Source: an uncultured Solirubrobacterales bacterium (GTDB taxonomy: Bacteria; Actinomycetota; Thermoleophilia; Solirubrobacterales; Solirubrobacteraceae). Taken from it: DNA of 64,000 nt. The position numbers and the translations under genes were made by a program. Position 1 is the stretch's first letter, and each line of letters starts with the position of its first letter. Of the stretch, positions 4,253 through 49,527 are shown piece by piece. Location: the NCBI GenBank assembly GCA_963704385.1, contig OY969904.1, forward strand, positions 4,908,825-4,972,824, in the 5' to 3' direction. The notes beneath the pieces are model-generated. The model was not told where the DNA came from. It saw only the letters and a program-made list of their open reading frames with translations, and did not search any database.

Positions 4253-4326
4253 GCCGGAGTAGCTCAGTCGGTTAGAGCAGCGGAATCATAATCCGCGTGT
4301 CGGGGGTTCGAGTCCCTCCTCCGGCA
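4253..4326 (+). tRNA. tRNA with CAT anticodon (elongator Met or Ile2), CCA not encoded
   Basis: Acceptor GCCGGAG/CTCCGGC, D arm AGCTCAGTCGGTTAGAGC, anticodon arm GCGGA-ATCATAA-TCCGC, T arm GGGGGTTCGAGTCCC; -10-like TAGACT at 4238-4243. Confidence 0.95.
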
Positions 4327-11684: not shown

Positions 11685-12090
11685 CGACGTCCTCCTCGAA
11701 TTTGAATTCAGTGCACTCGATTGGCACTCCGAAACGGGGCGGGCCCGGCACGAACGCCGACGCTCGGCCACGACCGGAAGCAAAGTTCATCTGCGCGTCG
11801 TGTTCCTCGGCGAGGCCGCGCGCGTCGGCCTCCACATCGTCAACTCCGAAGCAGATATGGTGGAGCCCTTCACCCTGCTGCGCCAGGTGAGCGGCGACGG
11901 CGCTGTCGTCGTCCAGCGGCTCTACCAACTGGATGTACGCGTTGCCCGCATCGAGGTATGTCAGCCGCACATGCGGGCGAGCGAGCACTTCCGCCGAGAC
12001 GACCGATAGGCCCAGCTGTCCGCAGAAGTGCGAGAGCGCGCGCTCGGTGTCGGCCACGGCGACAGCCACGTGGTCCAGCCGCCGAATCAT
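11656..12090 (-). CDS. VOC family protein (methylmalonyl-CoA epimerase-like)
   Basis: LDHVAVAV, IQLVEP, GEGLHHICFGVDD. Confidence 0.85.
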   Translation of the reverse strand: MIRRLDHVAVAVADTERALSHFCGQLGLSVVSAEVLARPHVRLTYLDAGNAYIQLVEPLDDDSAVAAHLAQQGEGLHHICFGVDDVEADARGLAEEHDAQMNFASGRGRASAFVPGPPRFGVPIECTEFKFEEDVDGNRGWLDD

Positions 12091-17382: not shown

Positions 17383-17795
17383 CCCGCCACCGCCGCCGTC
17401 ACCTGTATCTCCACCAGCAGCCCGGGAACCGGAAAGCCCGCCACGGTTGTGGTTCTCGCGGGGCGCGGCGGGAGGAAGGACTCGGCGAAAACCGCGTTCC
17501 AGGCCCCGAAGTCCGCCGAACGTGCCAGGTAGCACTCAACACGCAGCACATGAGCAGGGCTCGAGCCACCGTCCTCTAGCACGCGAAAAATGTCGAGCAG
17601 CACGGATTTCGCTTGCTGAACAAACTCCGCGGATCGGACTTGCAGCGTCGCCGGATCGACATCAGCCCGGCCCGATAGATACAGCGTCCCGTTCCACTCC
17701 GTGGCGTCCGCGATGAGTGGCTCGGCCGCTCCCATCGTCGACCCGGTGCCCAGCACCAGATGCCGTGGTCCATCGTCCAAGCGACCCTTACTCAT
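17379..17795 (-). CDS. RidA/Rid family imine/enamine deaminase
   Basis: LYLSG, DFGAWNAVFAESF..PRPARTT, LVEIQVTA (catalytic Arg present). Confidence 0.88.
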   Translation of the reverse strand: MSKGRLDDGPRHLVLGTGSTMGAAEPLIADATEWNGTLYLSGRADVDPATLQVRSAEFVQQAKSVLLDIFRVLEDGGSSPAHVLRVECYLARSADFGAWNAVFAESFLPPRPARTTTVAGFPVPGLLVEIQVTAAVAG

Positions 17796-17810
17796 GACCT
17801 AGCGGCGTAA

Positions 17811-17823
17811 GGTCATCAGACCA
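17811..17823. promoter_or_regulatory. Candidate FadR-family operator
   Basis: GGTCATCAGACCA resembles PdhR/LldR-type sites; between divergent ridA and regulator. Confidence 0.45.
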
Positions 17824-17916
17824 CATGATCAGCGGACTATAGTCCCCCCTGCCGGGCGCCCGCGACGCGGCCCAAACGAACAAACGACATGACAACTCCA
17901 GCTAACTTGGCACGGC

Positions 17917-18648
17917 ATGGCGCTCACGCAGCGGACTGAAGTCCGCCCCGAGCTGTCGCTCAAGCGGGCGTCGCGTCAAAAACTCGCCGAGACCGTGGCG
18001 CAGCAGCTGCTCGAGGCGATCCACGATCTGCCGCCTGGGACGCGACTGCCGCCGGAGCGCGAGCTTACGCGGGAGCTCGGCGTGGGCCGCTCCACGGTCA
18101 GGGAGGCGCTCAACGGTCTAGCGCTGATGGGCACAGTCGACATCCGCCACGGTCAAGGCGTGTTTGTGGCAGACCGCAGCAGCCAGGAGGCGCGCACGCC
18201 GGACGCGCTCGAGCGCGCATTGATGAAGGGCGTCACTCGCGAATTTCTTGAGGCACGACTAGTGGTCGAGGTGGAGATAGCACGATTTGCAGCCGTGCGG
18301 CGCACAGACGCCGATCTCGAACAGATCGCAGAGACGATCGAGGACCTCAAACAGGCGCTGGACGCGCCCACAAGGGACGCCCTCAAACCGGCGACGGGGT
18401 TCAACCTTGCGGTAGCGGAGGCAGCGCATAACGAGGTCCTCGCCGGCGTCATGCGACCATTCATAGAGTTGATGATCGAGCGCGCGCCTGCTCTGTACGA
18501 ACAGGCCGACTTCCGGCGCTGGGATATCGAGGACCACACGCGGATATACGAGGCAATCCGCGACGCCGACCCGGAGCTCGCAGCCGAGCGTATGCGGGAG
18601 CACATCATCACGATCGGCGAGCAGTACAAGCGGGCGGGCGAGGCCTAG
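17917..18648 (+). CDS. FadR/GntR family regulator (FCD domain)
   Basis: RLPPERELTRELGVGRSTVREAL, EARLVVEVEIA, DHTRIYEAI. Confidence 0.93.
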   Translation: MALTQRTEVRPELSLKRASRQKLAETVAQQLLEAIHDLPPGTRLPPERELTRELGVGRSTVREALNGLALMGTVDIRHGQGVFVADRSSQEARTPDALERALMKGVTREFLEARLVVEVEIARFAAVRRTDADLEQIAETIEDLKQALDAPTRDALKPATGFNLAVAEAAHNEVLAGVMRPFIELMIERAPALYEQADFRRWDIEDHTRIYEAIRDADPELAAERMREHIITIGEQYKRAGEA

Positions 18649-23703: not shown

Positions 23704-24498
23704 TTACGCCCCGATATTGGTTGGGGGCGGTAGCCCGACCGACAGTGCTCCGTCGACGACAAGCAATTCGCCCGTGAGATAGGACGCGTCTTCTGAGCAC
23801 ATCCAGAGGATCGCGCGCGCAATCTCGGCAGGCTCGGCGAAACGGCCTAATGGAATCCGTTCGAGGAATACCTTCGACTGCACCGGGTCATTGATCACGA
23901 ACGCCGCGAGACGGGTGTTGATGATCCCGGGCGCGATTGCGTTCACGCGGATGCCGTGCTGCGCAAGATCGAGCGCAGCGGTTTGCATGACCGCCACCTG
24001 GGCCGACTTCGAAGTGTTGTAGGCGAGCCCGCCGCCCTCCGGTTGAAAGGCATTTGTCGACGCGGTGATCGCGATCGCGCCCCGCGTTCCCTGCCGCACC
24101 ATGGCGCGGGCGGCCTCCTGAGCGAGGTACAACGTGCCGTTGAGGTTGACCTCCATGATGCGCTGCCATTGCTCATCGGGAAATTCCAAGAAGGGCACGA
24201 ACTCAGCGATCCCGGCGACCTGGACGGCAACGTCGAGATGGCCGAAGCGCTCGACCGCAAGTTCGATGGCTCGGACGACGTCCTCACGACGGCTGACATC
24301 TCCGACGACAGCTTCGACGCGTCCGCTGGTTCGTCGGATACTCTCCAGTGCGCTGTTCAGGGCGTCTGGCTCTATGTCGAGGAGCACCACCCCCGCGCCC
24401 TCGCCGACGAACCCCTCCGCAACGGCCCGGCCCAATCCCTGGGCTGCCCCTGTGACAACCACGCCCTTTTCCGCAAATCGGGCTAACGACATCGTCAT
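23704..24498 (-). CDS. SDR oxidoreductase
   Basis: TGAAQGLG, YNTSKSA, NAIAPG; ATGA overlap with upstream gene. Confidence 0.92.
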   Translation of the reverse strand: MTMSLARFAEKGVVVTGAAQGLGRAVAEGFVGEGAGVVLLDIEPDALNSALESIRRTSGRVEAVVGDVSRREDVVRAIELAVERFGHLDVAVQVAGIAEFVPFLEFPDEQWQRIMEVNLNGTLYLAQEAARAMVRQGTRGAIAITASTNAFQPEGGGLAYNTSKSAQVAVMQTAALDLAQHGIRVNAIAPGIINTRLAAFVINDPVQSKVFLERIPLGRFAEPAEIARAILWMCSEDASYLTGELLVVDGALSVGLPPPTNIGA

Positions 24499-25655
24499 TG
24501 CAAAAGCCCGATATGGCCAGGGCCTCGAGGAATCACGGGCCATATGTCAACGACGCGGTCACCCTCGACGACGTGATAAGCGTCGTACCAGTTAACAGTA
24601 CCGGGTGTGTACCCGGGCACGAGCTCGACGACGTCGCCGACCTCGAGCGTGACATCGCCAGTAGCTACGAAGACTCCGTGCTCCTCATCCGAGCGGAGCA
24701 CCGGCAAATCGTGACCACAGATAGTTGCCAGGGCGGGAGCGCCCATCGACTTGTTACCCGCGTCGACGACAACGCGGTCGGAACGCCGGCTGATAACGGT
24801 GGAGAGAACGGTGAGCGCCTGCTCGAAGTCAGAAATCATCGCGCCGTGGAAGTTGTCCATGACAACATATGACCCCGCCTGGATTTCGGTAACTCCGGGG
24901 AATGCCGCCGTCCAGTCCCACGTCGCAGTCCCGCCCGCTGACACGATGTCGCAGGGAAAGCCCGCTGCGCGGATCGACTCACCCACGCCCACGAGGAACC
25001 GCATTGCCGCCTGCTGGCGCTCATGACGCAGGTCGCGGTCCGGCGTGAGTGAGCAATGGCCTTCGTACCCAGTGACGCCAGTCAACCGGAGACCATCCAA
25101 GTGCGCGAGCCGATCGGCCAGCGTAATCGCCTCCTCGACGGAATCAACACCAGCTCGATCCATTCCAGTGTCGACCTCAATCAGCACCTCGAGCGTGCTG
25201 CCGGCGGCTCGCGCCTCCGCCGCGATCGCCGCGCCGTTTCGAGCGTCGTCCACGGCGACCATCACGTCGGCCTGGCGTGCGAGTGCCGCCAGCGCCGCAA
25301 GCTTGTAGCGGCCCGAGACCGTGTTCACGACCAATACACCGTCTAGGCCCGCCTGGACCATCACCATCGCCTCCCAGACGGTGGCCGTCGATACACCGAT
25401 CGCCCCCGCCTCGACCTGCATCCGAGCCAGCTCCGGGCTCTTGTGGACCTTGACGTGCGGCCGCAATTCGGCGCCACCCAGCGCCTTCAGTGTCTCAGCC
25501 ATCTTGGCTATGTTCCGGCGCACGACTGCGAGGTCTAGTACCAGGGCGGGAGTCACGAGGTCATGTCGCCGGCTCCCGATCTCCCAGCCGTACGCGCGGA
25601 GGACGCGATCGCGGACTTCCTGCAGGACAGGCTCGACCCCTAACACGCCAGCCAT
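24495..25655 (-). CDS. Fold-type III PLP enzyme (DSD1 / D-threonine aldolase family), copy 2
   Basis: TPALVLD, LRPHVKVHKS, DTGMDRAGV, GYEGH, EIQAGSY, DEEH. Confidence 0.9.
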   Translation of the reverse strand: MAGVLGVEPVLQEVRDRVLRAYGWEIGSRRHDLVTPALVLDLAVVRRNIAKMAETLKALGGAELRPHVKVHKSPELARMQVEAGAIGVSTATVWEAMVMVQAGLDGVLVVNTVSGRYKLAALAALARQADVMVAVDDARNGAAIAAEARAAGSTLEVLIEVDTGMDRAGVDSVEEAITLADRLAHLDGLRLTGVTGYEGHCSLTPDRDLRHERQQAAMRFLVGVGESIRAAGFPCDIVSAGGTATWDWTAAFPGVTEIQAGSYVVMDNFHGAMISDFEQALTVLSTVISRRSDRVVVDAGNKSMGAPALATICGHDLPVLRSDEEHGVFVATGDVTLEVGDVVELVPGYTPGTVNWYDAYHVVEGDRVVDIWPVIPRGPGHIGLLQ

Positions 25656-33161: not shown

Positions 33162-34642
33162 AAGGTCGCCGGCCCTCCGCGTCGAACGACATACGTCGAA
33201 GGCACGCGCGGGTAGCAGCCGCGCGGCCGGTCATTCGAGCACGAAGGGCCGACCGGGACCCAACGGTATGCGATGGGTCGGGCTGAACGCTGCCCGCGTC
33301 AGGTTCGACGCGAGGAGACGAGCAATGACGATCGTGATGGGTCTTGACCAGCACCGAGCGCAGATCACCGCGGAGTGGGTCGACACCGACACGGGTGAGA
33401 TTGGCCGTAGCCGGGTGACGCCGGCTAACCGAGCGACGGTGCGGCGGTTCCTTGAGCGCTTCCGGGGCCGGCGGCTCGAGGTGGCGTTGGAGGCGACGAC
33501 CGGCTGGCGGTTTGTGGTCGAGGAGCTTGAGCGGGTCGGCGCGGCTGTGCATCTCGCCGAGCCGGCGGAGACCGCGGAGCGGCGGGGGCGCAAGAAGCGC
33601 GCGAAGACCGATCGGGCCGACGCCAGGCTGTTGCGGGAGCTGGTGATGACCGGCCGCCTGCCAGAGTCGTGGATCGCGCCCGGGCACATCCTCGACCTCC
33701 GCGCGCGTGTGCGGCTGCGCCACACACTGGTCGATCAGCGCGGCGAGTGGCAGCAGCGGATTCACTCGGTCCTCTACCACCACGGCGTGCCGCAGCGCCG
33801 AGGGCTCGGGCTGTTGACCGCCGACGGCCGCGCCTGGCTCGCGCGCGGGCCGCTGTCGCCGGCGGCGCGCGAGCAGGTCACCGTCGCGCTCGCGATGATC
33901 GACAAGCTCGACGCCCAGCTCGCGCCGATCGACAAGCAGCTGCGTGCATACGCGCGCCGGCAGCCAGGCTGCAAGGCGCTGATGGGCCTCTACGGTATCG
34001 GTCACCTGACCGCGGTCACGATCCTGGCCGAGCTCGGCGACGCCCGCCGGTTCTCCTCCTCGCGCGACGCCGTCCGCTACTCGGGCCTGGACATCACGGT
34101 CAGCCAATCCGACCGGCGACGCGCACCCGGGCACCTGAGCCGCCAAGGCCCCCCCGCGCTTCGCTGGGCACTGTATGAGGCCGCCCAGTCAGCCCACCGC
34201 AAGACCAGCCCCGACCGCGACTACTACCTCCAAGCGGCCGAGCGCCTAGGCAATAACCGTGCCTGCTTGGCGATCGCGCGCAAACTCCTCAAGCGCAGCT
34301 ACCACACCCTGCGCGAGCTCGGCGACGAGGCGCTGCAGCCCGCGTGACATCCGACCGTGCGCGCGCAGTCCTCACTCACACCGATGCGCCGCGGCCGGCT
34401 CCCGTCAGTCGCCTGCCGCCACGTCCCCGCGTGGACGGCCTCCAAAGACCGAGCGGCCGCAACGCCTACCCCCAGCGGGATCACACCCCATCAACCATCA
34501 TGTCGCCGAGCCACCACACCAACAGGCTCGCGGACCGAGATAAGGCTGGGCGCCCGCGCGCACACGACACCCCACTACCGACCCCGACCAGCAACTTCTT
34601 CACGACCGGAGGGCTTGACAAGGGCCGACAGCACAGATAAGG
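33162..34642 (+). mobile_element. IS110-family insertion sequence (ends inferred)
   Basis: IS110 recombinase, no terminal IRs, shared AAGG at 33162-33165 and 34639-34642, TTGACA near right end. Confidence 0.75.
33325..34347 (+). CDS. IS110 family recombinase/transposase
   Basis: GLDQH (D), ALEATTG (E), KTDRADA (DxxD), GIGHLTAVTILAELGDARRFSS, SQSD (Tnp Ser); GAGGAG SD. Confidence 0.95.
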   Translation: MTIVMGLDQHRAQITAEWVDTDTGEIGRSRVTPANRATVRRFLERFRGRRLEVALEATTGWRFVVEELERVGAAVHLAEPAETAERRGRKKRAKTDRADARLLRELVMTGRLPESWIAPGHILDLRARVRLRHTLVDQRGEWQQRIHSVLYHHGVPQRRGLGLLTADGRAWLARGPLSPAAREQVTVALAMIDKLDAQLAPIDKQLRAYARRQPGCKALMGLYGIGHLTAVTILAELGDARRFSSSRDAVRYSGLDITVSQSDRRRAPGHLSRQGPPALRWALYEAAQSAHRKTSPDRDYYLQAAERLGNNRACLAIARKLLKRSYHTLRELGDEALQPA

Positions 34643-40427: not shown

Positions 40428-40796
40428 TCCTGGCGGCCTCGCGCAGCCGCGTGGCCAAGATCTCGCCGGCAGCTCCATGAGGATGCGCTGCAGCACGTAC
40501 CAGAATCGTTTCTTGAGGTACATCGCGGAGCACCTCGCATGGCGCGCGTCCGCTCGTCGACCGGAGTGCCGCTCGGCGGCGAGGAACGTCAACCGCCATC
40601 GCTCCGCTGCAGACACCAGCCTAGCGCCGAATGCCGCCCTCGATTGCGCGGTCCGTAGGGGAGCCGAAGCCTTCCCACCGCACCGAACGCGAGCGCTACC
40701 AAACGCGTTGTGCTCCTGGCGAAATGGAGGACTATTGCCCTGGGCGGGTCGGAACCTGCTTTCAGTAGGTACGCAGTTCGGCCGGAATGGAGGTGG

Positions 40797-41564
40797 CTAA
40801 CGCTGGCGATCGGTTTCGCGTCGCAGGATCTGGGCGTGTAGCTCGCGGGCCTTGGGTCCTGGGGTGATGCCGAGCTCGTCGCTTAGCCGCTGGCGCAGTT
40901 GTTCGTAGAGGTGCACGGCTTCGGCTGGGTCGCCGCGAGCGTCCAGCACGCGCATGAGCAGTACGTACCCACGCTCTCGCAGCGGCGCTTCAAGGATCAG
41001 CTTGTGCGCTGCCGCCTCCGCGTCTGACAGCTCGGCACCGCCAATGCCCAGTCCTACCGTCGTCCAGCAATCCAGTGCGCGCAACCGTATGTCGTCAAGG
41101 TGGCGCCTGGCCTCATCGATCCAGCTTGCCTCCATCCCGGTTAGAAAGCGTCGTCGGGAGACATTAAGCGCGATGTGGGACGGCGCCCAGCCCTCTTTCC
41201 AATCCTCTCGTTGGACGGCAGATTCGGCCCTGTGAATCGCGGCCTCCGCCGCCTCGAGGTCGATCCACGCCCCGGCCGGCAGGGCTAGCTGTAAGGCGCC
41301 CCTTCCCTGTAGGACCTCATTCCCGAGCGCCTTCCGCAGACGGGACACGACTACGCGAAGATCGTGGTCGGCGCCTGGTGGCGCGCGGTCGGGCCACAGC
41401 GCCTCGATGCATTCATCGCGGTCGACGCTGCGACGACGATTGAGAGCCAGATACCCGAACAGCAGGCGGCCCTGCCGTCCGGGCAGCGCATCCTCGCAGC
41501 GCTCTCCAACCAGCTCGACGACCAGTTTTCCGCACAGCTGGATCCTCGTAGGTTCGGACTGCAA
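40797..41564 (-). CDS. SARP/AfsR-type activator (wHTH + BTAD only)
   Basis: GRQGRLLFGYLAL, LRVVVSRLRKALG, PLRERGYVLLMR, LSDELGITPG; TTG start inferred. Confidence 0.88.
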   Translation of the reverse strand: MQSEPTRIQLCGKLVVELVGERCEDALPGRQGRLLFGYLALNRRRSVDRDECIEALWPDRAPPGADHDLRVVVSRLRKALGNEVLQGRGALQLALPAGAWIDLEAAEAAIHRAESAVQREDWKEGWAPSHIALNVSRRRFLTGMEASWIDEARRHLDDIRLRALDCWTTVGLGIGGAELSDAEAAAHKLILEAPLRERGYVLLMRVLDARGDPAEAVHLYEQLRQRLSDELGITPGPKARELHAQILRRETDRQR

Positions 41565-41602
41565 CGTTTCTGCAACCTCGCGACAACAGCCCAGTTCACA
41601 AT
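41559..41602 (+). promoter_or_regulatory. Three heptamer direct repeats at 11-bp period plus -10 CACAAT
   Basis: CTGCAAC 41559, CTGCAAC 41570, CGACAAC 41581; CACAAT 41597-41602. Confidence 0.65.
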
Positions 41603-41630
41603 GTGCGCCACCAATAGGAGAGGAGCAATT

Positions 41631-41789
41631 ATGGCGAAGCTGATCAACTGCGAATGCGGTTACGTGGTGCGGGGGGAAACAGACGAGGAGCTCGTCCAAA
41701 ACGCCGAGCGCCACATCGGAGAGACCCACCCTGACATGGTCGGAAAGGTCACTCGCGAGGATTTGCTCTCGATGGCCGAAGACGAGTAG
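41631..41789 (+). CDS. DUF1059-like small metal-binding protein
   Basis: 52 aa, CECG..VRGETDEELV...H...H; GAGGAG SD. Confidence 0.85.
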   Translation: MAKLINCECGYVVRGETDEELVQNAERHIGETHPDMVGKVTREDLLSMAEDE

Positions 41790-41857
41790 CACCGAGCGGA
41801 TCTCGTAATCATCTGGGGAAGGGTCCACCGCGGCGTGCGTCCGACGCACCACTGCGG

Positions 41858-41898
41858 GCGAGCTCTGTCGCCCACGGGAGCGAGCTCTGTCGCCCACG
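41858..41898. repeat. 19-bp perfect direct repeat, 22-bp period
   Basis: GCGAGCTCTGTCGCCCACG at 41858 and 41880. Confidence 0.9.
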
Positions 41899-42027
41899 CC
41901 CTGGCCCGCTTTTGCCGCGCAGCGCTAATTCGAGCCCCCCGCACCCGAGTGCCCCAAAGCGCGGATAGGGCGCCTCAGCGGCCGCCGGGAGCTCGTTCGG
42001 CACAGCGACGCCGGCGGCGGTCGCGCT

Positions 42028-42201
42028 TGCCGCGCAACTCAGGTGCGCAGTTCGGAGGGTCGCCACTACCGCGGCCAAACGAAACGAGGTCTCTTGCGTA
42101 GCCAAGCTTCCGCATCGTCCCGAGGCGTCAGAAGCCTGCCTTCGGGGTCGGCGCGCTCTCGCGTCTCGTCGAACTGAGGAGCCTCTCTCAGGAGCCCGAG
42201 C
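42028..42201 (+). repeat. 174-bp inverted repeat, left copy
   Basis: Reverse complement of 45951-46124 with 4 mismatches by manual alignment. Confidence 0.92.
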
Positions 42202-42466
42202 ACTGCCGCTCTGGCCGGGAGCGGCGGTGGTGGGACGGAACTCGGCGGCTCCCCAGCCGCCTCAATGCAGGTCTGTGGACGAGACTCCCGGATTGCAGAC
42301 CGAGCAGGCGCGAGGCCGGATCTGCGGGCGGCCGACAGGGGCCTTCGTCGGGAGCCGTCTGTGGCTCGGGTCACGTCGAACGTCTACGAACGTGACCGGA
42401 TACGGGGCTCAGTTGTCTTCAGGCTTCTTTGGCAGATCGCGGCTGAAGCTGTGCGGGTGTCGGTGC

Positions 42467-43189
42467 TCAGCGCCAGCAGTCGTCGTCGCAGCCGGGCTGT
42501 TGTTGGTTGGTGATGGGTGGCGCGGTGCAGCAGCCTTTGTCTTGCCAGGTTTGGCGGCCTTCGTTGATGGCGAGGGTGGCGATGGCCAGCGCGACGGCGG
42601 GATCGGCCCACCACAGGCCGAAGGCGGCGTTGAGCGCGAGGCTGACGAGCACTTCCGCGGCGAGGTAGGCGCAGAGTAGGTTCTGCGTGCCTTCGCCGGC
42701 GGTCGCGCCGGATCCCAGCCGCTGGCCGATGCGGTGCTTCGCGTTGCCGAGCTGGGGCATGACGATGATGCTCGAGACCGACAGTCCGATCCCGAGCCAG
42801 CTCGTGTGGGGGTGCTCGCCGGCGATCAGGGCGCGGATCGCGTGTTGCGCTATGTAGGGGGCTAGTAGGAAGAAGCTGATCGCGACGAGGCGTTCGGCGC
42901 GTCGTTCGGCGTCAGGGGATAGCCGACGCGAGCCGGTGAAGCGCCAGATGACGATCACCGATGCGAGCGCTTCGATCGCGGAGTCCAGGCCGAAGCCGAG
43001 CAGCGCGACCGAGCCGGCGAGGAGCGCGGCGGTGACCGCGAGCGCGCCCTCGGCGGTCATGTAGGCCAGCGATAGCCAGGACAGCGTTTTGGCGCGGCGG
43101 ATCAGCCGGTCGCGCTCGCGGGGATCCAGGCGCTGCTGGGCGACCTGAGCGGTGCGGGCGATCGGCAGCTCGAGCGGGGTGGTGCTCAT
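42467..43189 (-). CDS. Cation transporter (CDF-like TM domain, Cys-rich tail)
   Basis: GSVALLGFGLDSAIE, AERLVAISFF, WWADPAVAL; tail CC...CDDDC. Confidence 0.85.
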   Translation of the reverse strand: MSTTPLELPIARTAQVAQQRLDPRERDRLIRRAKTLSWLSLAYMTAEGALAVTAALLAGSVALLGFGLDSAIEALASVIVIWRFTGSRRLSPDAERRAERLVAISFFLLAPYIAQHAIRALIAGEHPHTSWLGIGLSVSSIIVMPQLGNAKHRIGQRLGSGATAGEGTQNLLCAYLAAEVLVSLALNAAFGLWWADPAVALAIATLAINEGRQTWQDKGCCTAPPITNQQQPGCDDDCWR

Positions 43190-43539
43190 CGGGTGGCTGG
43201 CATCGGTGTGAGATAGCTGTCGAGCAGCCGTGTGCCGAGCTCGGTGAGCGCGTAGAAGACGATCTTGTGCTCGCGCCGCGAGCTAGCCAGGCCAGCGGCG
43301 CGCAGGGTCCGCAGGTGGTGACCGACGAGGTTCTCGGGCCGGCCGGTGATCCAGGCCAGGTCACAGACGCACAGCTCCCCGCCTTCGCGTAGCGCCACGG
43401 CGATCGTCACTCGCGTGGGGTCACCCAGCGCCTTGCCTCGGGCGGCCGCGTCGGCGATCGCCGCCTCGTTGAGATGCTGGCGGATGTCCTCGGCGCGCGT
43501 CAGGTCGAGGCAGAGCAGATCGCAGCGGTCGTCGGGCAC
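43186..43539 (-). CDS. ArsR/SmtB metal-sensing repressor (CadC/CmtR-like)
   Basis: CDLLC, KALGDPTR, ELCVCDLAW, HHLRTLRAAGLA. Confidence 0.92.
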   Translation of the reverse strand: MPDDRCDLLCLDLTRAEDIRQHLNEAAIADAAARGKALGDPTRVTIAVALREGGELCVCDLAWITGRPENLVGHHLRTLRAAGLASSRREHKIVFYALTELGTRLLDSYLTPMPATR

Positions 43540-43640
43540 GATCTCATCCTAACGCGTGTTGTGTTGACAGGCGGGAGCCGCGGCGCTGATCGAGCCGCGG
43601 CCGACGCCACGGCTGGTCGGAAACCAGCGGTTTCGCCGCC

Positions 43641-43669
43641 TTGACAAGAATTATTAGGCATGCCATATT
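43641..43669 (+). promoter_or_regulatory. Promoter TTGACA-N17-CATATT with imperfect palindrome ATTAGGCA/TGCCATAT (candidate DtxR/MntR operator)
   Basis: Direct reading; -10 ends 9 nt before ATG 43679. Confidence 0.65.
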
Positions 43670-43678
43670 GTTGTGCGT

Positions 43679-44362
43679 ATGCCTGCGCAACAATTTCTTT
43701 CGCCATCGGTGCAAGACTATGCGAAGGCGGTGTACGCGCTTGAGACTCGCGGCGGCGCGGCGGTTTCGACGAACGATCTCGCTGCGCGGCTCGGGGTGAC
43801 GCCCGCTTCGGTGTCGGGCATGGTGCATAAGCTGACCGAGGTCGGGATCGTCGAGCACGAGCCATATCACGGTGTGCGCTTGACCCACGAGGGTCGGCGA
43901 GTGGCTTTGGAGGTGCTGCGCCATCACCGCCTGCTGGAACTGTTCCTCGCTCAGGAGCTCGGGATGTCCTGGGATCGCGTGCATGCCGAGGCCGAGGTGC
44001 TCGAGCACGTGCTCTCCGAGGAGCTCGAGGAGCTGATCGCCGCGCGGCTGGGCGACCCGGCGGTCGACCCGCACGGAGATCCGATCCCCACGCCCCTGTT
44101 CGAGATCGACGAGCGCCCGACATTCAGCCTGAACGAACTACCGGTCGGTGCCGCCGGACGCTTCGTACGCGTGTCTGACTCGGACCCGGAGATGCTGCGC
44201 TACCTCGCTGAGCATGGCATCACGCTCGACGCTCGGCTCGAGGTTGTGGATCGCCAGCCGTTCGGTGGGCCGGTGTTCGTACGGTTCGGCGAGCGCGAGC
44301 GTCCGATCGGCGGCGAGCTGGCACGCGCGATGAGGATCGAGACCGACAAAGACGCGCGGTGA
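43679..44362 (+). CDS. mntR: DtxR/MntR metal-dependent regulator with FeoA domain
   Basis: QDYAKAVY, RHHRLLELFL, EAEVLEH, DPHGDPIP. Confidence 0.9.
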   Translation: MPAQQFLSPSVQDYAKAVYALETRGGAAVSTNDLAARLGVTPASVSGMVHKLTEVGIVEHEPYHGVRLTHEGRRVALEVLRHHRLLELFLAQELGMSWDRVHAEAEVLEHVLSEELEELIAARLGDPAVDPHGDPIPTPLFEIDERPTFSLNELPVGAAGRFVRVSDSDPEMLRYLAEHGITLDARLEVVDRQPFGGPVFVRFGERERPIGGELARAMRIETDKDAR

Positions 44363-45684
44363 CCCCGCCGCCCGGCCCACCGGTTCCAGCGCTCGAGGGC
44401 GCCGGCGCCAACAGAAGCCTGCCGTTGAGCGAGCCGCTCGAGGCCAGCGCGCTGGAGCGCCTCCTATCGCGCGGGAAGGTACGCGCGACGCTGTTCATGC
44501 TCGGCCCCGCGTTCGTCGCGTCGATCGCCTACGTCGACCCGGGGAACTTCGCAACCAACGTGGCGGGCGGCGCGCAGTTCGGCTACATACTGCTGTGGGT
44601 GGTACTGGCGGCCAACCTGGTCGCGATGGTGATCCAGTACCTGTCAGCCAAGCTCGGGATCGTCACTGACCGCAACTATCCCGAGGTCGTGCGCGACAAA
44701 TACCGCCGCGCGTTCAGCTTTGGCATGTGGGTGCAGGCCGAGATCATGGCGATGTCGACCGACATCGCCGAGTTCCTCGGCGCCGCGATCGGGCTAAACC
44801 TGCTGTTCGGCGTGCCGCTGTTCATCGCCGGGCTGATGACCGGCGTGATCGCGTTCGCGATCCTCGCGCTACAGGCGCTGGGCTTCCGAAAGTTCGAGCT
44901 GGCGATCAGCGGGCTGCTGGGCATCATCTTCGCCGGCTTTCTGTATGAGACGCTAAGGATCGGACCGTCCGTGCACGAGTCGCTGCACGGGCTGATCCCC
45001 GGCCTACAGGGCGGCACCACGGAGCTCTACCTCGCGGTCGGGATCGTCGGCGCGACCGTGATGCCGCACGTGATCTACCTGCACTCGGCGCTGACCAAGG
45101 GCCGGATGCCGACCCGCAACGACGGCGAGAAAAAGCGCGTGCTGCGCTTTGAGCGACTCGACGTGTACATCGCGCTCGGGCTTGCCGGGCTGGTCAACAT
45201 GTCGATGCTCGCCGTCGCCGCCAAGCTCTTTCACACCCCTGCGCTCTCAGGCCTGAGCACGATCGGGCAGGCCCACTTTCAGCTCGGGCGCCTGGTCGGC
45301 GGCACCGCCGCGATCGCTTTCGCGGTCGCGCTGCTGGCGTCCGGGGCCTCGTCTTCCAGCGTGGGCACCTACGCCGGCCAGGTCGTGATGGGCGGCTTCA
45401 TCAACCGCAAGATTCCCCTGTTCCTACGCCGGGGGCTGACGATGATCCCCGCGCTTGTGGTCATCGCCGTCGGCACGAACCCGACCAGCGCGCTCGTGCT
45501 CAGTCAGGTCGTGCTGTCGTTCGGCATCCCGCTCGCGCTCATACCGCTGGTGATGCTCACCAGCCGCCGCGACATCATGGGCGTCCACGTCAACGGGCGC
45601 ATCCTCAAGATCTCCGGCTGGACGATCGCTGCGGCCATCAGCGCAATGAACATCTTCCTGATCTACCAGCAGTTCTTCTCATGA
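44359..45684 (+). CDS. mntH: Nramp divalent metal transporter
   Basis: AYVDPGNFATN, GATVMPHVIYLHS, SQVVLSFGIP. Confidence 0.95.
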   Translation: MTPPPGPPVPALEGAGANRSLPLSEPLEASALERLLSRGKVRATLFMLGPAFVASIAYVDPGNFATNVAGGAQFGYILLWVVLAANLVAMVIQYLSAKLGIVTDRNYPEVVRDKYRRAFSFGMWVQAEIMAMSTDIAEFLGAAIGLNLLFGVPLFIAGLMTGVIAFAILALQALGFRKFELAISGLLGIIFAGFLYETLRIGPSVHESLHGLIPGLQGGTTELYLAVGIVGATVMPHVIYLHSALTKGRMPTRNDGEKKRVLRFERLDVYIALGLAGLVNMSMLAVAAKLFHTPALSGLSTIGQAHFQLGRLVGGTAAIAFAVALLASGASSSSVGTYAGQVVMGGFINRKIPLFLRRGLTMIPALVVIAVGTNPTSALVLSQVVLSFGIPLALIPLVMLTSRRDIMGVHVNGRILKISGWTIAAAISAMNIFLIYQQFFS

Positions 45685-45950
45685 GCTGAGCACCACGACC
45701 AGACGCACGCAATCCACGGCGGATCGCGGCCAGACCGCAAAACGCCCGCGATGCCAAACGGCCGGAGGCCAGAGCGCGGGTCGTGCGTAAGCGTGACTGG
45801 ATCGTCGGCAAGCCGTCCAGGCACAGCCGGGCGTCCGGATGCTTGAAGTCGACCAGGAGGGCCAGTCTCCGGTCGAACATCCGCCGCTAGGACCCCGACA
45901 CGACGCTCGACGAGCCCGATATTGCTGCTTCGACTCGACGGAGCGGCTTT

Positions 45951-46124
45951 GCTCGGGATCCTGAGCGAGGCTCCTCAGTTGGACGAGACGCGAGAGCGCG
46001 CCGACCCCGAAGCCAGGCTTCTGACGCCTCGGGACGATGCGGAAGCTTGGCTACGCAAGAGACCTCGTTTCGTTTGGCCGCGGTAGTGGCGACCCTCCGA
46101 ACTGCGCACCTGAGTTGCGCGGCA
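45951..46124 (-). repeat. 174-bp inverted repeat, right copy
   Basis: Reverse complement of 42028-42201. Confidence 0.92.
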
Positions 46125-46253
46125 GGCAAGGCGCGCGGCGCCGGCCGGTGGCAGCCTCAGCGTGGTCCGTCGCGCTCGTGGCGACATGCGAGACGGACGT
46201 CGTCTGCGGTGTCGAGACGTGCATTCGTGTCGGCGCGTGTACGGGGGATCCTC

Positions 46254-46282
46254 GTGACTTCCTCTGGTCCAGGAGGAGTCAC
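46254..46282. repeat. Imperfect inverted repeat (hairpin or operator)
   Basis: GTGACTTCCTCTGG / CCAGGAGGAGTCAC. Confidence 0.6.
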
Positions 46283-46575
46283 ATCGGCGTGCCGGTCGAC
46301 GTGACTGGGTTCATAAGGGCTTCGACCGAGCGGCCGGCGCGACGCTGTTGAGATTCGTACGTAGCCCTCACGAGATCAGCGAGGCTGCTGGCGGTCGTCA
46401 CCGAGGGGAAGCAGCGAACGCGCTCCTGACATTTGCGATTTGCGAACACTCGCGCGGCCCCAGAGGCCGACCTGCGTTCGGGTTAGCGCGGGCATGCCTT
46501 GCGATCGTGTTCGCGTGATTCAGTGTCGCCTTTCCGGACGGGTTCGGTGACTGCACGCTGGGGCGTCGGGTGCGT

Positions 46576-47634
46576 TCAGGTGTCCTGCCGCGGCGGCAGC
46601 GATGGTAGGCGCGCCGCGAGCCGCCATCCGCCGGTTGGGGTCGGCCGGGCGTCCAGCGTCCCCCGGAGCTCCACGATCCGCTCTCGCAGCCCGGCGAGGC
46701 CGAAGCGTCCGCCGGCGTTCGCCAATCGAGCGGCCGTAGCGGTGGGCGCGGTGTTCTCGACGCTAACGGATAGCGCCGCGCTGGTGACCTCCACCTCGAC
46801 CCGGATTGACGAGCCGGGAGCGTGCTTGAGCGCGTTGGCGATCCCCTCCTGCGTCACCCGGTGGGCGACCTCCGCGAGCTCCGTCGCAACCTGGTCCCGG
46901 CTACCGGCGAACGAGTAGGTGATCGAGAGCCCGCTCCTGGCGGCTCCGCGAAGCAGCGCATCGAGGCGGCGAAGCCCCTCGTCGGCGCCCCCGTCGCGTG
47001 CGTCCTGACCGAGCAGGCCGACGAGCTGATTGATCTCCTCCCTGGCTGATTGGGCGCCGGCCTCGATGTGCCGCAGCGACTCCGACAGGACCTCAGGGCG
47101 CTCGGGCGAGCCGCGGCGACCGGCCCCCGCCTGGACGACGATCAGGCTGAGATTGTGCGCCACGATGTCGTGCAGATCGCGCGCGATCCGTGCTCGTTCG
47201 TAGCGAACGGCCTCGCGTGCGAACCCCTCGCGCTCGCGCTCGAGCTGGCCCGCCCGCTCCGCGAGCTGAGCGGACAGGTGGCTGCGCGAACGCATCACTT
47301 GCCCCATGGCCCACGCCGGTACGGTGAACACCCACATCGAGACGACCGAGCCCGAAAGGTCACCGGCAGTCGACCCGAACGCGAGCGCGACGAGTGCCAC
47401 GACCGTCGCCGGAAAGCCGACTCGCCAGCCGACGAGGAAGCTCAGGACCACCGGGATCACTGTTAGCGGGTCAAGGAGGGTCTCGGTCCACCAGCGAGCA
47501 CCGAGGACGACCCCCGGAACGAACAGTGCAGCGGAGACGGCGATGGCGACCGCCGCCAGGTGACGGTCGAGCCATCGTCGGCCACGCGTGATCAGGCTGG
47601 CGTCCGACGTGCGCGCGATAAGCGGCTCACGCAT
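46576..47634 (-). CDS. Membrane sensor histidine kinase (HisKA_3)
   Basis: RIARDLHDIVAH (His intact), QEGIANALKHA, GLAGLRER. Confidence 0.92.
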   Translation of the reverse strand: MREPLIARTSDASLITRGRRWLDRHLAAVAIAVSAALFVPGVVLGARWWTETLLDPLTVIPVVLSFLVGWRVGFPATVVALVALAFGSTAGDLSGSVVSMWVFTVPAWAMGQVMRSRSHLSAQLAERAGQLEREREGFAREAVRYERARIARDLHDIVAHNLSLIVVQAGAGRRGSPERPEVLSESLRHIEAGAQSAREEINQLVGLLGQDARDGGADEGLRRLDALLRGAARSGLSITYSFAGSRDQVATELAEVAHRVTQEGIANALKHAPGSSIRVEVEVTSAALSVSVENTAPTATAARLANAGGRFGLAGLRERIVELRGTLDARPTPTGGWRLAARLPSLPPRQDT

Positions 47635-48802
47635 GCACGGTTACCAGCGGCAACCGCACGTCTGTTGTGGCGACGCCGGACCGGACGTCCGACTCGAGCC
47701 GCCCGGCGTGCAACGACACCCACTCTCTGGCTGCTGCGATCGGTGTCTGGACGTCTGCCTCGGACCGCACCCTTCCGCGGACGAGTACGCCGAACTCCTC
47801 GGGCGCGTAGTGGAGCGCCACCGAGATGCGTGCGTCAGGCATTCCCTCGAGCGGCTCCAGCAACCGCTCGATAATCCGAAACGCCGACAGCTCCACCCCC
47901 GCCGGCAACCGTGATCGTTCGCCCTGGACGGTGAGCACTGCGCGCCCGCGGCCCAAGCGCACCATCAGCGCGTCGAGGTCAACGAGCGACGGCAGGGGGC
48001 CGAGCGGTTGCTCGTCACGCAGCGTTCCGACGATCTCGCGCATCTCGCTCAGTGTCCGACGCCCCTCGGTCTCGATCGCCGCCAGCGACGCGCGCGCCGC
48101 GCCAGGCTCCGCACCGACCATTTCCTGTGCAGCGGCTGCGTCGGACGCAAGCCGGCCGATCCGCTTGCCGATCGCAGCGTCGAGGTTCCGGGCGACCCGT
48201 GCCCGGTCGGCAGCGACAGCCAACCGCGCCGTGCGGTCACGCTGCTCGCGCAACTCGTCGTTGCGAGCCTGCAGGACGTTGGCCATCGCCTGTCGCCCGC
48301 GGACCACCCGGCCCGCACCCCAGAAGAGCGCCGTCAGCACGCAGGCGCCGAGCGTAAACCCTTTCAGCTGCGGATCGCTCTGAGCCTGCGCGATCGCAGA
48401 CACCAGCCCTAATCCCGCCCCGAGTAATGCGGGCCGCAGCTCACACCCGTCGGCGACCGAGAACAGGCACAGGAACAGTGCCGGCAGCGCAGCGCCGCAG
48501 CGCACGTATGAGCCGACCACCAGCCAGTTGAATACCGCCCCTGCCGCGAGCGCCGTGATCGCCGCAAGCGGCGCGGATCGCCGCCACGCGACTGGTAGCG
48601 TCATCGATAGCGCAGCCGCGCACACCCACACCCCGCCTTGCGGGTTCGTGCTGACGAGCGCGCCGCTCGCAGCGAGTACGACGCCGACGCTCAGCATGAG
48701 GGCTAGCAAGCCGTTCAGCCGGGTTACCCCCGAGACGCTCGACGGCCCTGACCACCAATGCGCAACCCGGCTCAGCATTTGCAAGCCCCTTTCGCGTGAC
48801 AT
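47627..48802 (-). CDS. Degenerate HisKA_3-like sensor (pseudokinase)
   Basis: Same architecture, but H-box reads RVARNLDAAIG and N/G boxes are lost; start at ATG 48802 inferred. Confidence 0.75.
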   Translation of the reverse strand: MSRERGLQMLSRVAHWWSGPSSVSGVTRLNGLLALMLSVGVVLAASGALVSTNPQGGVWVCAAALSMTLPVAWRRSAPLAAITALAAGAVFNWLVVGSYVRCGAALPALFLCLFSVADGCELRPALLGAGLGLVSAIAQAQSDPQLKGFTLGACVLTALFWGAGRVVRGRQAMANVLQARNDELREQRDRTARLAVAADRARVARNLDAAIGKRIGRLASDAAAAQEMVGAEPGAARASLAAIETEGRRTLSEMREIVGTLRDEQPLGPLPSLVDLDALMVRLGRGRAVLTVQGERSRLPAGVELSAFRIIERLLEPLEGMPDARISVALHYAPEEFGVLVRGRVRSEADVQTPIAAAREWVSLHAGRLESDVRSGVATTDVRLPLVTVHA

Positions 48803-48837
48803 TCTCCAGCGTGCCGGGTGAATCGACAAGCTGCACG

Positions 48838-49527
48838 ATGGATTCTGGAACGCAGACAGCAAAGGAGATCAGGGTGCTGGTCGCCGACGACCAGCACCTC
48901 GTCCGCGCCGGCTTCAGGATGATCATCGAAGGCGAGCCCGACATGCTCGTTGTCGGCGAGGCAGGGGATGGGCTGGAAGCGCTCGATCTTGCCCGCAAGC
49001 GCGCCCCCGACGTCGTGCTGCTTGACATCAGGATGCCTGCCATGGACGGCCTCACAGCAGCGCGGCGGATCATCGCCGAGACCGATAGCCGGGTGCTGCT
49101 GCTGACGACATTTGACGCCGACGAGTACGTCTTCGAAGGGCTGCGGGCCGGCGCCAGCGGCTTTTTGCTGAAGGACACCCCGCCCGAGCAACTGTGCTGG
49201 GCGGTGCGCACAATCGCCCGGGGCAATGCCCTTATCGATCCGGCCGTCACCCACCGCCTGATCCTTCGATTCGCAGCCGCCGCTCGTAACACGGGTGATA
49301 CGCCGCGCGAGCTCGCGGAACTGACGCCGCGGGAGCTCGACGTCCTGCGGTTGATCGCCCGCGGCCGTTCCAACGCAGAGATCGCGAGCGACCTGGTGGT
49401 CGAGGAGTCGACCGTCAAGAGCCACGTCGGCCGGATCTTGACGAAGCTCGGTCTGCGCGACCGCGTGCAGGCGGTCGTGCTCGCCTACGAGTGCGGGCTT
49501 GTGACGCCGGATCTGCTCGCTCACTAG
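48838..49527 (+). CDS. NarL/LuxR family response regulator
   Basis: VADDQ, LLDIRMPAMDG, LTTFD, LTPRELDVL, TVKSHV. Confidence 0.95.
   Translation: MDSGTQTAKEIRVLVADDQHLVRAGFRMIIEGEPDMLVVGEAGDGLEALDLARKRAPDVVLLDIRMPAMDGLTAARRIIAETDSRVLLLTTFDADEYVFEGLRAGASGFLLKDTPPEQLCWAVRTIARGNALIDPAVTHRLILRFAAAARNTGDTPRELAELTPRELDVLRLIARGRSNAEIASDLVVEESTVKSHVGRILTKLGLRDRVQAVVLAYECGLVTPDLLAH

Follow-up and report, generated by a model that had tools for sequence, protein, structure and literature searches.

A divalent-metal gene module flanked by layered inverted repeats that contain a dispersed non-coding unit in a Solirubrobacterales bacterium

Within the 64,000-nucleotide stretch of DNA analysed here (the window, to which all positions refer), four genes for metal regulation and transport lie between the arms of a long inverted repeat (Table 1). 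Their domain content confirms the two divergent pairs named in a preliminary description of this DNA, ArsR with a CDF-like exporter and DtxR/MntR with the Nramp importer MntH, as well as its statement that no recombinase is encoded between the arms. Domain content and family scores fit MntR-MntH and CadC-type ArsR plus CDF operons, in which a regulator is likewise paired with a transporter, but the 240-aa CDF protein lacks the usual cytoplasmic domain and is covered by TIGR01297 in its membrane part alone, with a score under the cut-off, and the MntR-like protein scores 214 bits against NF047407 (MntR), under the equivalog cut-off of 350. The metal specificities of these proteins are predictions from family matches. 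The functional coherence of packaging them together is plausible, because the ArsR protein carries an N-terminal C-x3-C and an ELCVCDL motif, which we take to resemble the Cd/Pb/Zn-binding alpha3N site of CadC. In the divergent control region, a sigma-70-like promoter at 43641-43669 (TTGACA-17-CATATT with TG upstream, a consensus match only) is overlapped by a 28-nt palindrome at 43667-43694 (ATTGTTGTGCGTATGCCTGCGCAACAAT), a predicted operator-like site over the mntR promoter of the kind expected in MntR-MntH operons. The non-coding spacers downstream of the two operons show no similarity to each other, although they are almost equally long (255 and 256 nt), a match for which the explanation favoured below gives no reason. 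Scanning the non-coding flanks against Pfam in all six frames returned no domain, and the left spacer is 95-99% conserved in many soil, peat and permafrost runs.

Table 1. Features of the metal gene module and its flanks (window positions).
Feature	Position	Strand	Evidence
Module A, short, dispersed, partly palindromic	41959..42029		contigs from X1, X3, X6, X28, X30
Outer remnant of older inverted repeat, left arm	42010..42029		16/20 vs mirror 46123-46145, plus 3-nt gap
Dispersed unit, ~141 nt, left copy	42030..42170	+	140/141 vs right copy; 172.6 bits (covariance model)
Inner part of older inverted repeat, left arm	42171..42211		36/41 vs 45941-45981
Left non-coding spacer, 255 nt, downstream of CDF gene	42212..42466		codon-position GC flat
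Short CDF-family cation efflux protein, 240 aa, Cys-rich C-terminal tail	42467..43189	-	Pfam PF01545, 1.4e-7
ArsR/SmtB metalloregulator, N-terminal C-x3-C and ELCVCDL	43186..43539	-	PF01022; NF033788 69 bits (cut-off 55)
Divergent control region	43540..43672		sigma-70-like promoter, 28-nt palindrome
DtxR-family, MntR-like repressor with FeoA domain	43673..44362	+	PF01325, PF02742, PF04023
Nramp-family Mn2+ importer MntH	44359..45684	+	PF01566 1.5e-113; NF001923 515 bits (cut-off 430)
Right non-coding spacer, 256 nt, downstream of mntH	45685..45940		codon-position GC flat
Inner part of older inverted repeat, right arm	45941..45981		repeat finder, mirror alignment
Dispersed unit, ~141 nt, right copy	45982..46122	-	176.2 bits (covariance model)
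Outer remnant of older inverted repeat, right arm	46123..46145		blastn, mirror alignment
Second short module, several unrelated contigs	46179..46245		contigs from X25, X27, X28, X30

A repeat finder places the inverted repeat, 187 nt long and 96% complementary, at 42025-42211 and 45941-46127, with 3729 nt between the arms, and gapped blastn extends the match to 42010-42211 against 45941-46145 (205 columns, 93.7%, one 3-nt gap, E = 9e-87). The span of 42028-42201 had earlier been given as the reverse complement of 45951-46124 with four mismatches; that count is exact (42139, 42171, 42186 and 42194), and the real repeat is longer, by about 10 nt inward and, more weakly, by about 15 nt outward. 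A 52-nt core of the repeat finds only these two arms in the 64 kb (0 matches expected, 100 shuffles), and neither candidate pair of ends shows an apparent target-site duplication, in agreement with the preliminary description. Each arm is two-layered, consisting of a discrete unit of about 141 nt and an older, poorer inverted repeat around it, with arm-to-arm identity falling from the unit to its inner and outer flanks (Table 1; Fisher p = 1e-4, unit against flanks). The left unit points its 5' end (CCGCGCAACTCAGGTGCGC...) outward and its 3' end (...GGCGCGCTCTCGCGTCTCGTC) toward the cassette, and no third copy was found in the window by a covariance model run with filters off. The close match between the two copies, which differ at just one of 141 positions, would also be expected if the duplication were an artefact of assembly or polishing; furthermore, no public contig spans the junction of unit and inner repeat, and same-strain contigs end at 42011. 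Such an artefact is nevertheless very improbable: the arms as a whole differ at seven positions and by a 3-nt indel, relatives from several studies independently carry an inverted repeat at the same place, and contigs ending at a repeat edge are what a de Bruijn assembler is expected to yield.

The unit itself belongs to a dispersed family. Solo copies, 91-94% identical and with unrelated flanks, occur at three other assembled metagenome loci (L001 and L002/L003, from JGI contigs, and L020, from an ENA contig), with a sharp 3' boundary at ...CGCGTCTCGTC; every other assembled copy is solitary, an outcome that the preliminary description had itself named as one that would count against its reading. 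In the soil runs X16, X17 and X12 the unit lies in five, 13 and nine differently flanked Logan contigs, respectively, always ending at 42165-42170, and it is likewise present in differently flanked contigs of runs X1, X2, X3 and X6. No contig records a variant at 42032-42048. All copies lie inside long stretches without coding signal, and neither terminal inverted repeats nor direct flank repeats were found for the unit. The sequences directly 5' of the copies (GCTTGC, GCCTGC, GCTTCA, GCTGAC and GCTTCC) suggest that it is usually preceded by a GCTTG/GCTTC-like motif, degenerate and seen in few copies. No TnpA or TnpB gene occurs in the window or beside other copies, where the only transposase is one IS110-family gene, 8 kb from the repeat. 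The repeat had no match in a plasmid collection, and a search of 185,579 reference genomes with exact 18-20-nt words from it gave no true match.

The high conservation of the unit against unrelated flanks is also compatible with a small structured RNA gene or cis-acting RNA, of which the repeat would simply hold two copies. Read inward, their transcripts would converge on both metal operons and be antisense to the operons' 3' regions, with possible roles as antisense RNAs, insulators or regulators of 3' ends; the 99% identity of the two copies could then instead stem from purifying selection on a functional RNA. When the window, L001 and L020 are compared, covariation is seen in a hairpin at 42058-76 (GGUCGCC-ACUAC-CGCGGCC), its third pair from the base (42060-42074) being U.G, C-G or U-A and its loop-closing seventh pair (42064-42070) C.C, C-G or G-C. 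Moreover, transitions tallied at predicted paired positions (42060, 42074, 42120, 42123, 42126, 42130, 42140 and 42160) leave a wobble or Watson-Crick pair only when the left copy is read on its plus strand, and predicted loops hold most of the variation. Against this, the unit has no Rfam match even at E <= 5, its single-sequence fold is not better than shuffles (z of +1.1 and +1.3), and covariation on five sequences stays within shuffle controls, with 340 of 500 shuffles scoring at least as high as the real alignment. In more divergent copies many paired positions are altered without compensation (42095; 42108 with 42111; 42113; 42137 with 42138). No consistent promoter was found upstream of the unit, no RNA run holds it, and its neighbouring genes (a sulfatase, unknown proteins, metal transporters) share no common theme. 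A purely RNA-based reading is hence unlikely.

The arms are flanked by further dispersed sequences. Contigs matching module A are alike only over 41959-42025/42037, with unlike sequence on either side, and those matching the second short module only over 46179-46214/46271, again with unlike flanks. Module A marks a synteny break, since a relative that is 97-98% identical over 40717-41966 diverges at 41966; its hairpin fold has a z of only -1.3. The flanks resemble the REP/BIME mosaics known from E. coli and Pseudomonas in being a mosaic of short modules (41959-42029, the unit and 46179-46245), some of them palindromic. Each module is found again between genes at many unrelated places, and the modules are located downstream of convergent gene ends. 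The unit differs from REP sequences, however, in being about four times as long and not itself a palindrome, and no RAYT gene was seen.

Comparison with relatives separates the history of the module from that of the unit. Five other contexts (L015/L018, L016/L017, L019, L021 and L022) contain the four-gene module, at 81-88% nucleotide identity, and none of them has an inverted repeat around it; the match breaks off at the two stop codons, and the flanks are different. Closer soil relatives retain the inner repeat in both arms along with the cassette and lack the unit: in close relatives from four independent studies the inner repeat runs straight into ...GTGCTTG or ...GTGCT on both arms, and right-arm contigs cease to match at 45986, the mirror of 42166. 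Since these relatives have the inverted repeat and not the unit, the unit probably joined the arms late and is not what carries the cargo. Their empty sites already hold 5-10 nt identical to the 3' end of the unit (TCGTC, GCGTCTCGTC), so that the insertion boundaries are ambiguous and deletion in the relatives is possible.

These observations bear directly on the proposal, made in the preliminary description, that the repeats form a non-autonomous composite transposon. Under that proposal the whole 4.1 kb would move in the manner of a MIC or TIME-COMP, with the arms as ends and a transposase supplied in trans, and several features agree with it: a self-contained cargo without transposase is bracketed by inverted repeats, relatives from several studies preserve the inner repeat in each arm, the module is located at a synteny break and adjoins IS5-like, IS21, integrase and serine-recombinase genes in other lineages, and cargo units bounded by MITEs or TIMEs are documented elsewhere (PMC4133298, PMC3934969, PMC13367494). 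A composite transposon is nonetheless quite unlikely here, given the lack of a target duplication, of plasmid or reference-genome matches and of terminal inverted repeats on a unit that is solitary everywhere else, the repeat-free locations of the module, and an outer extent of the repeat that varies among relatives, which is unexpected for functional transposon termini. Still less probable is a programmed invertible or excisable segment whose arms serve a dedicated site-specific recombinase. Beyond the inverted-repeat geometry, what speaks for it is the IS110-family recombinase gene 8 kb away, but that element has no sequence similarity to the arms, no recombinase lies inside or next to the segment, and inversion would have no obvious effect on operons whose common promoter region is internal. 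No recombination joints were seen in own-strain data, at a coverage (2-4x, short contigs) far too low to judge. The 4.1-kb segment is thus not demonstrated to be either a composite transposon or an invertible switch.

Among documented systems, MITE/TIME composite units and mobile insertion cassettes likewise place two inverted small non-autonomous repeats around passenger genes, with no transposase inside (PMC4133298, PMC13367494, PMC3934969, PMC3913671). Their repeats, however, have terminal inverted repeats matching a parent IS or Tn3, and the units make target duplications and recur at several sites (PMC4133298, PMC13367494, PMC3934969, PMC3913671); here the unit has no such termini, no duplication was seen, other copies are solo and the cargo occurs elsewhere without the repeat. 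The earlier label of a MITE-like element is hence right in a loose sense, because the repeated sequence belongs to a dispersed family of small non-coding elements, and fails on the termini and the target duplication; overall, the preliminary interpretation is partly supported. PATEs are IS200/IS605 derivatives without protein genes; they lie next to a transposon-adjacent motif and often carry a guide-RNA scaffold (PMC10055086). Like them (PMC10055086; PMC7290912), the unit is small and non-coding, lacks terminal inverted repeats and target duplications, has hairpins near both ends and a defined polarity, adjoins a short, semi-conserved 5' flank motif, is scattered in intergenic DNA and may have RNA structure on the strand read from its 5' to its 3' end. 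It departs from PATEs in that no TnpA (Y1) or TnpB/IscB gene was seen near any copy, the Rfam IS605-related and HEARO families show no similarity to it, its 5' motif is degenerate, and its 5' hairpin begins 2 nt from the mapped end, where about 20 nt would be usual; the unit is a putative mobile element.

The explanation that we favour, at roughly even odds, starts from a short, older inverted repeat whose two arms each received, by insertion or by copying, a dispersed non-autonomous element or small RNA gene. The segment would then be a chromosomal module for divalent-metal homeostasis, in which a CadC-like ArsR with a short CDF exporter and an MntR with an MntH importer form two operons probably transcribed divergently from one common control region. 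Among the Solirubrobacteraceae-like soil bacteria of this clade, an old inverted repeat, imperfect and roughly 60 nt long, encloses the module, and the long, near-perfect part of the present repeat is a separate non-coding element of about 136-141 nt, occupying the equivalent position in both arms in mirror orientation. The layering of the arms, the scatter of the unit and the relatives that lack either the unit or the whole repeat are observed directly. The element could have entered by site-preferring insertion into both arms, with an identical target on offer, or by a single insertion followed by gene conversion from arm to arm. With a putative hairpin at its variant-free 5' end and a GC hairpin 5 nt from its 3' end, it appears to behave more like hairpin-ended elements free of terminal inverted repeats, such as PATEs, than like a classical MITE, and it may be transcribed. 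For the organism, the 187-bp repeat would mainly be expected to let RecA invert the intervening 3.7 kb from time to time, a change that should be neutral because both operons have their own promoters inside.

The inverted repeat around the metal genes, which the preliminary description had put at 174 bp, is real according to both a repeat finder and blastn. The repeat finder places its arms at 42025-42211 and 45941-46127 (187 nt, 96% complementary, with 3729 nt between them), and gapped blastn lengthens them to 42010-42211 versus 45941-46145 (205 columns, 93.7%, E = 9e-87); a 52-nt core occurs at two sites only in the whole 64 kb, where chance predicts none. The arms are non-uniform. Compared with each other, they are identical at 140 of 141 positions across 42030-42170, as opposed to 36 of 41 in the inner part (42171-42211) and 16 of 20, plus a 3-nt gap, in the outer part (42010-42029), so that a near-perfect unit of about 141 nt is set within a poorer repeat (Fisher p = 1e-4 for the unit versus its flanks within the arms). 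A covariance model run with filters off found no third copy of the unit in the 64 kb. It is very improbable that this arrangement is an assembly artefact, since mismatches at 7 positions and an indel set the two arms apart and an inverted repeat is seen independently in relatives.

These relatives also separate the two layers of the repeat. The closer relatives of the cassette, at 95-99% identity, were found only among short Logan contigs of soil, peat and permafrost origin, which retain the inner repeat along with the spacers and have the unit on neither arm. Their similarity to the window switches at 42166 (42160/42161 in sequencing run X38) into sequence ending in ...GTGCTTG or ...GTGCT, and their arms agree at 83% across the next 30 nt in runs X1, X2 and X6, diverging sooner in X38. 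The cassette is therefore bracketed clade-wide by an old, imperfect repeat of some 55-75 nt; the added unit is seen in the window alone. Because the sequence of the relatives already holds 5-10 nt identical to the 3' end of the unit, the boundaries of the latter are blurred, and its deletion in the relatives, rather than its addition in the window, keeps some probability.

Copies of the unit are found in several unrelated loci. In one pass over JGI metagenome contigs, a 22-mer taken from the repeat hit three of them (L001-L003). They stand for two loci and carry one copy apiece of 42030-42170 alone (91-94% identical), with nothing beyond it shared with the window. A six-frame translation of the arm, used as a protein query, gave one match, the spurious ORF P0121, a 250-aa "protein" overlying the one unit copy of the ENA contig L020. 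Several genes of this contig, including that for EF-Tu (17468-18644), are split into adjacent ORFs, which suggests frameshift errors of long-read assembly. In the copies of L001-L003 and L020 similarity breaks off sharply at ...CGCGTCTCGTC on the 3' side and sets in at or shortly before CCGCGCAAC on the 5' side, and the flanks are unrelated; unit copies sit within long stretches lacking coding signal. Furthermore, runs X1, X2, X3 and X6 each contain several Logan contigs that match the unit alone or parts of it, with differing flanks, and with the threshold set at 80%, X16, X17 and X12 yield 5, 13 and 9 unit contigs, respectively, which differ in depth and flanks and all end at 42165-42170. 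The unit is hence present in many contexts per metagenome, contexts not assignable to single genomes, and it amounts to two copies in the 64 kb of the window and one in the 20.7 kb of L020. Overall, the feature is of a known kind, namely dispersed intergenic repeat copies flanking a gene cluster.

Features of the cassette and ends of the repeated unit.
Feature	Coordinates	Strand	Evidence or sequence
Short CDF-family protein, 240 aa	42467-43189	-	Pfam PF01545
ArsR/SmtB regulator	43186-43539	-	NF033788, 69 bits versus cut-off 55; HTH_5
DtxR-type MntR-like repressor	43673-44362	+	
MntH (Nramp)	44359-45684	+	NF001923, 515 bits versus 430, full length; PF01566, 1.5e-113
Unit, left copy	42030-42170	+	
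Unit, right copy	45982-46122	-	
Ends of the unit			CCGCGCAACTCAGGTGCGC and GGCGCGCTCTCGCGTCTCGTC

The gene content first reported for the cassette, an ArsR regulator with a CDF-like exporter and a DtxR/MntR regulator with an Nramp-type MntH, was borne out by profile matches, as was the lack of a recombinase between the arms; there is no transposase remnant inside the cassette or in its non-coding flanks either. The CDF protein scores above the Pfam PF01545 threshold (31.9 versus 26.6 bits) and below the full-length cut-off of TIGR01297 (48.5 versus 82 bits, profile positions 5-187 of 285). The ArsR sequence carries C6 and C10, forming an N-terminal C-x3-C, and an ELCVCDL motif, a pattern that we take to resemble the alpha3N site of CadC (CVC in helix 3 plus N-terminal cysteines), and its metal specificity is probably CadC-like. 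The 133-nt divergent region includes a sigma-70-like promoter, and a 28-nt palindrome at 43667-43694, ATTGTTGTGCGTATGCCTGCGCAACAAT, which overlaps the predicted -10 element of mntR-mntH and the mntR start, is a candidate MntR operator. No exact-protein match to the MntH, CDF or ArsR of the window is on record, and the C-terminal fragment of the CDF protein, used as a query for near-identical short contigs, retrieved no protein above 80% identity. The C-terminal 80 aa of this protein (42470-42709, minus strand) match 44 stand-alone database proteins, mostly of ~97 aa and 60-80% identical, several of which carry the JGI name "divalent metal cation transporter"; judging from these matches, the CDF tail apparently has a small gene of its own as well.

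Through MntH homologues that are 84-93% identical as proteins, five other contexts were reached, contigs L015/L018, L016/L017, L019, L021 and L022, all of which hold the four-gene module at 81-88% nucleotide identity; sources assign relatives of this protein to Solirubrobacteraceae. Similarity to the window starts and stops in these contigs close to the two stop codons, a few bases away at most, and the inverted repeat is absent around the module in all five contexts. The neighbours of the module vary by contig, and in several cases genes of IS5-like or IS21 type, integrases or serine recombinases are among them. In L016 (9540-11081), L017 (4448-5988) and L019 (102-1609) the module has an IS5-like transposase (DUF772 plus DDE_Tnp_1) either upstream of it or immediately behind mntH, and in L019 (7521-10949) mntH is followed by a tyrosine integrase and a large serine recombinase. 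The module is a conserved block, often in new surroundings, and the inverted repeat is not part of it.

The preliminary description had read the repeats either as a MITE-like element forming a non-autonomous composite transposon or as the recombination sites of an invertible or excisable unit, and had asked whether repeat copies recurrently bracket other cargo. The observation stands and the interpretation holds in part, the composite transposon and the invertible unit both faring poorly. A true non-autonomous composite transposon is improbable, given that there is no target duplication outside the arms (left flank ...GGCACAGCGAC versus right flank CGGTGGCAGCC..., with no exact direct repeat at either candidate boundary), that the assembled copies elsewhere (L001, L002/L003, L020) are all solitary and unrelated in their flanks, that the relatives of the module are repeat-free and that the outer extent of the repeat varies. 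Neither a bounded unit at a second site nor an empty site was found when looked for: a left-flank relative (40717-41966, 97-98% identical, runs X28 and X30) leaves similarity to the window at 41966 and continues into sequence absent from it, and the right flank matched short shared modules only. A programmed invertible or excisable unit is more doubtful by far, for there is no recombinase gene between 40.8 and 49.5 kb, nor any switchable feature.

The divergence of the left-flank relative places the cassette at a synteny break. Beside the arms, short modules at 41959-42029 and 46179-46245 are dispersed like the unit, and the non-coding flanks of the cassette are therefore a mosaic of short dispersed repeats. 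No protein remnant was detected in the flanks 41790-42470 and 45680-46580, where Pfam searches on six frames gave no match and codon-position GC is flat. The non-coding spacers from arm to stop codon measure 255 nt on the CDF side (42212-42466) and 256 nt on the mntH side (45685-45940); this near-equality raised the suspicion of homology, which was rejected on alignment scores equal to those of shuffles (z about 0). The strain of the window itself was recovered in three runs at 2-4x, in contigs of 150-275 nt ending at the repeat edge. A tandem direct repeat of two copies with a 22-nt period, GAGCTCTGTCGCCCACG, occupies non-coding sequence to the left of the cassette (41860-41901). On the right, the cassette is directly followed by two adjoining minus-strand HisKA_3 histidine kinases (46576-47634 and 47627-48862) and, next to them on the plus strand, a LuxR-type response regulator (48796-49527).

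The window has a single transposase, of the IS110 family (33268-34347, plus strand; DEDD_Tnp_IS110 and Transposase_20), and a link between it and the arms was rejected, as no similarity was seen by sequence or by covariance model. This gene lies within a lower-GC stretch at ~23-38 kb (58-65%, against about 67-70% elsewhere) that also has GntR, amino-acid permease, sugar-phosphate isomerase-like and dehydrogenase genes, and which may therefore be an acquired island. Elsewhere in the window, a 109-nt direct repeat of 80% identity (11410-11518 and 25357-25465) falls in or beside a pair of paralogous minus-strand genes of the alanine-racemase-N/D-serine-dehydratase-like type (10530-11783 and 24495-25655), and a tRNA-Met (CAT) at 4253-4326 is the only Rfam or ARAGORN hit.

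The label "MITE-like" fits the unit in part. At ~141 nt, with flat codon-position GC and no six-frame Pfam match, it is non-coding and within the size given for MITEs (under about 500 bp), and it is dispersed. Its first and last ~20 nt, however, lack complementarity in all the copies compared (window, L001, L020), and no direct repeat is common to the flanks of five copies; lacking both terminal inverted repeats and flanking direct repeats, the unit fails two defining features of MITEs. Near its 5' end, a hairpin at 42032-42048 (GCGCA-ACTCAGG-TGCGC) has zero variants recorded across contigs, and a GC hairpin at 42150-42165 (GGCGCG-CTCT-CGCGTC), 5 nt from the 3' end, varies in its loop and shows one G.T pair. 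The 6 nt directly 5' of the unit read GCTTGC, GCCTGC, GCTTCA, GCTGAC and GCTTCC in five copies, and the 5' flank ends in ...CTCGTAT or ...GCGGATC in other Logan unit contigs. In its hairpins near both ends, its lack of terminal inverted repeats and target duplication, its possibly semi-conserved adjoining motif and its fixed polarity, the unit is like the PATEs, protein-less IS200/IS605 derivatives that often encode guide-RNA scaffolds (PMC10055086). It differs from them in that no TnpA or TnpB gene lies near it in the loci examined, among whose genes, and those examined in the window, no Y1_Tnp or OrfB_IS605 domain was detected. By analogy, it is PATEs that the feature set of the unit most resembles, a likeness of behaviour and not a claim of membership.

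The repeat family is apparently undescribed. Rfam 15 holds no family matching the unit at gathering score or at E <= 5, and 20-mers gave nothing in 185,579 reference genomes, with 18-mers returning chance hits only. The plasmid collection has no match to the repeat, and exact 20-mers from the unit and from the outer arm of the relatives are absent from viral contigs; a plasmid or viral origin was rejected on these grounds.

A further explanation would see in the unit a gene for a small RNA, here in two copies. For the plus strand of the left copy, RNAalifold predicts several helices in which few pairs are broken, with a worse result for the opposite strand, and a hairpin at 42058-76 covaries, its third pair from the base (42060-42074) being U.G, C-G or U-A and its loop-closing pair (42064-42070) C.C, C-G or G-C. 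The transitions tallied where pairing is predicted leave wobble or Watson-Crick pairs, and do so only on the plus strand of the left copy. On the other side, single-sequence folds of both strands are not better than shuffles, whole-structure covariation measures on five sequences do not exceed shuffle controls, and several predicted pairs change uncompensated in more divergent copies; a fold of the whole unit is unsupported once copies of 80-90% identity are included. No RNA run containing the unit was found. If the plus strand of the left copy is the transcribed one, the two copies point inwards and converge with both operons. An RNA role is hence possible and unproven, and the explanation by a duplicated small RNA gene, if unlikely, keeps some weight.

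The layers of the repeat can be joined in a single account, to which we would give about an even chance. A conserved metal-homeostasis module would lie between the halves of an old short inverted repeat, and a dispersed, non-autonomous, hairpin-ended element would later have come to occupy the same site in both arms, either through site-preferring insertion into two identical targets or through a single insertion and subsequent gene conversion. The repeat of 187 bp formed in this way could support homologous inversion of the enclosed 3.7 kb, which should be neutral because both operons are self-contained. A bolder version, which we regard as improbable, would make the unit an undescribed hairpin-ended mobile element of uncultured Solirubrobacterales, devoid of terminal inverted repeats, minimal and either IS200/IS605-like or otherwise RNA-guided, and almost entirely structured RNA, whose site-specific insertion into the same target in both pre-existing arms gave rise to a long perfect repeat that could flip the cassette or mobilise it.

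If the account of an older repeat occupied by a dispersed element is right, the long inverted repeat tells little about the movement of the metal genes, and it is instead a clean example of one element in both arms of an older repeat. It would also document a small, widespread and undescribed repeat family in abundant uncultured soil Actinomycetota, offering a lead towards new elements without terminal inverted repeats or towards new small RNAs. For genome annotation, such units are of practical concern, as short-read assemblies break at them and spurious genes are called over them, P0121 being one instance. The ArsR-CDF/MntR-MntH module, for its part, is a conserved block that recurs in differing neighbourhoods.
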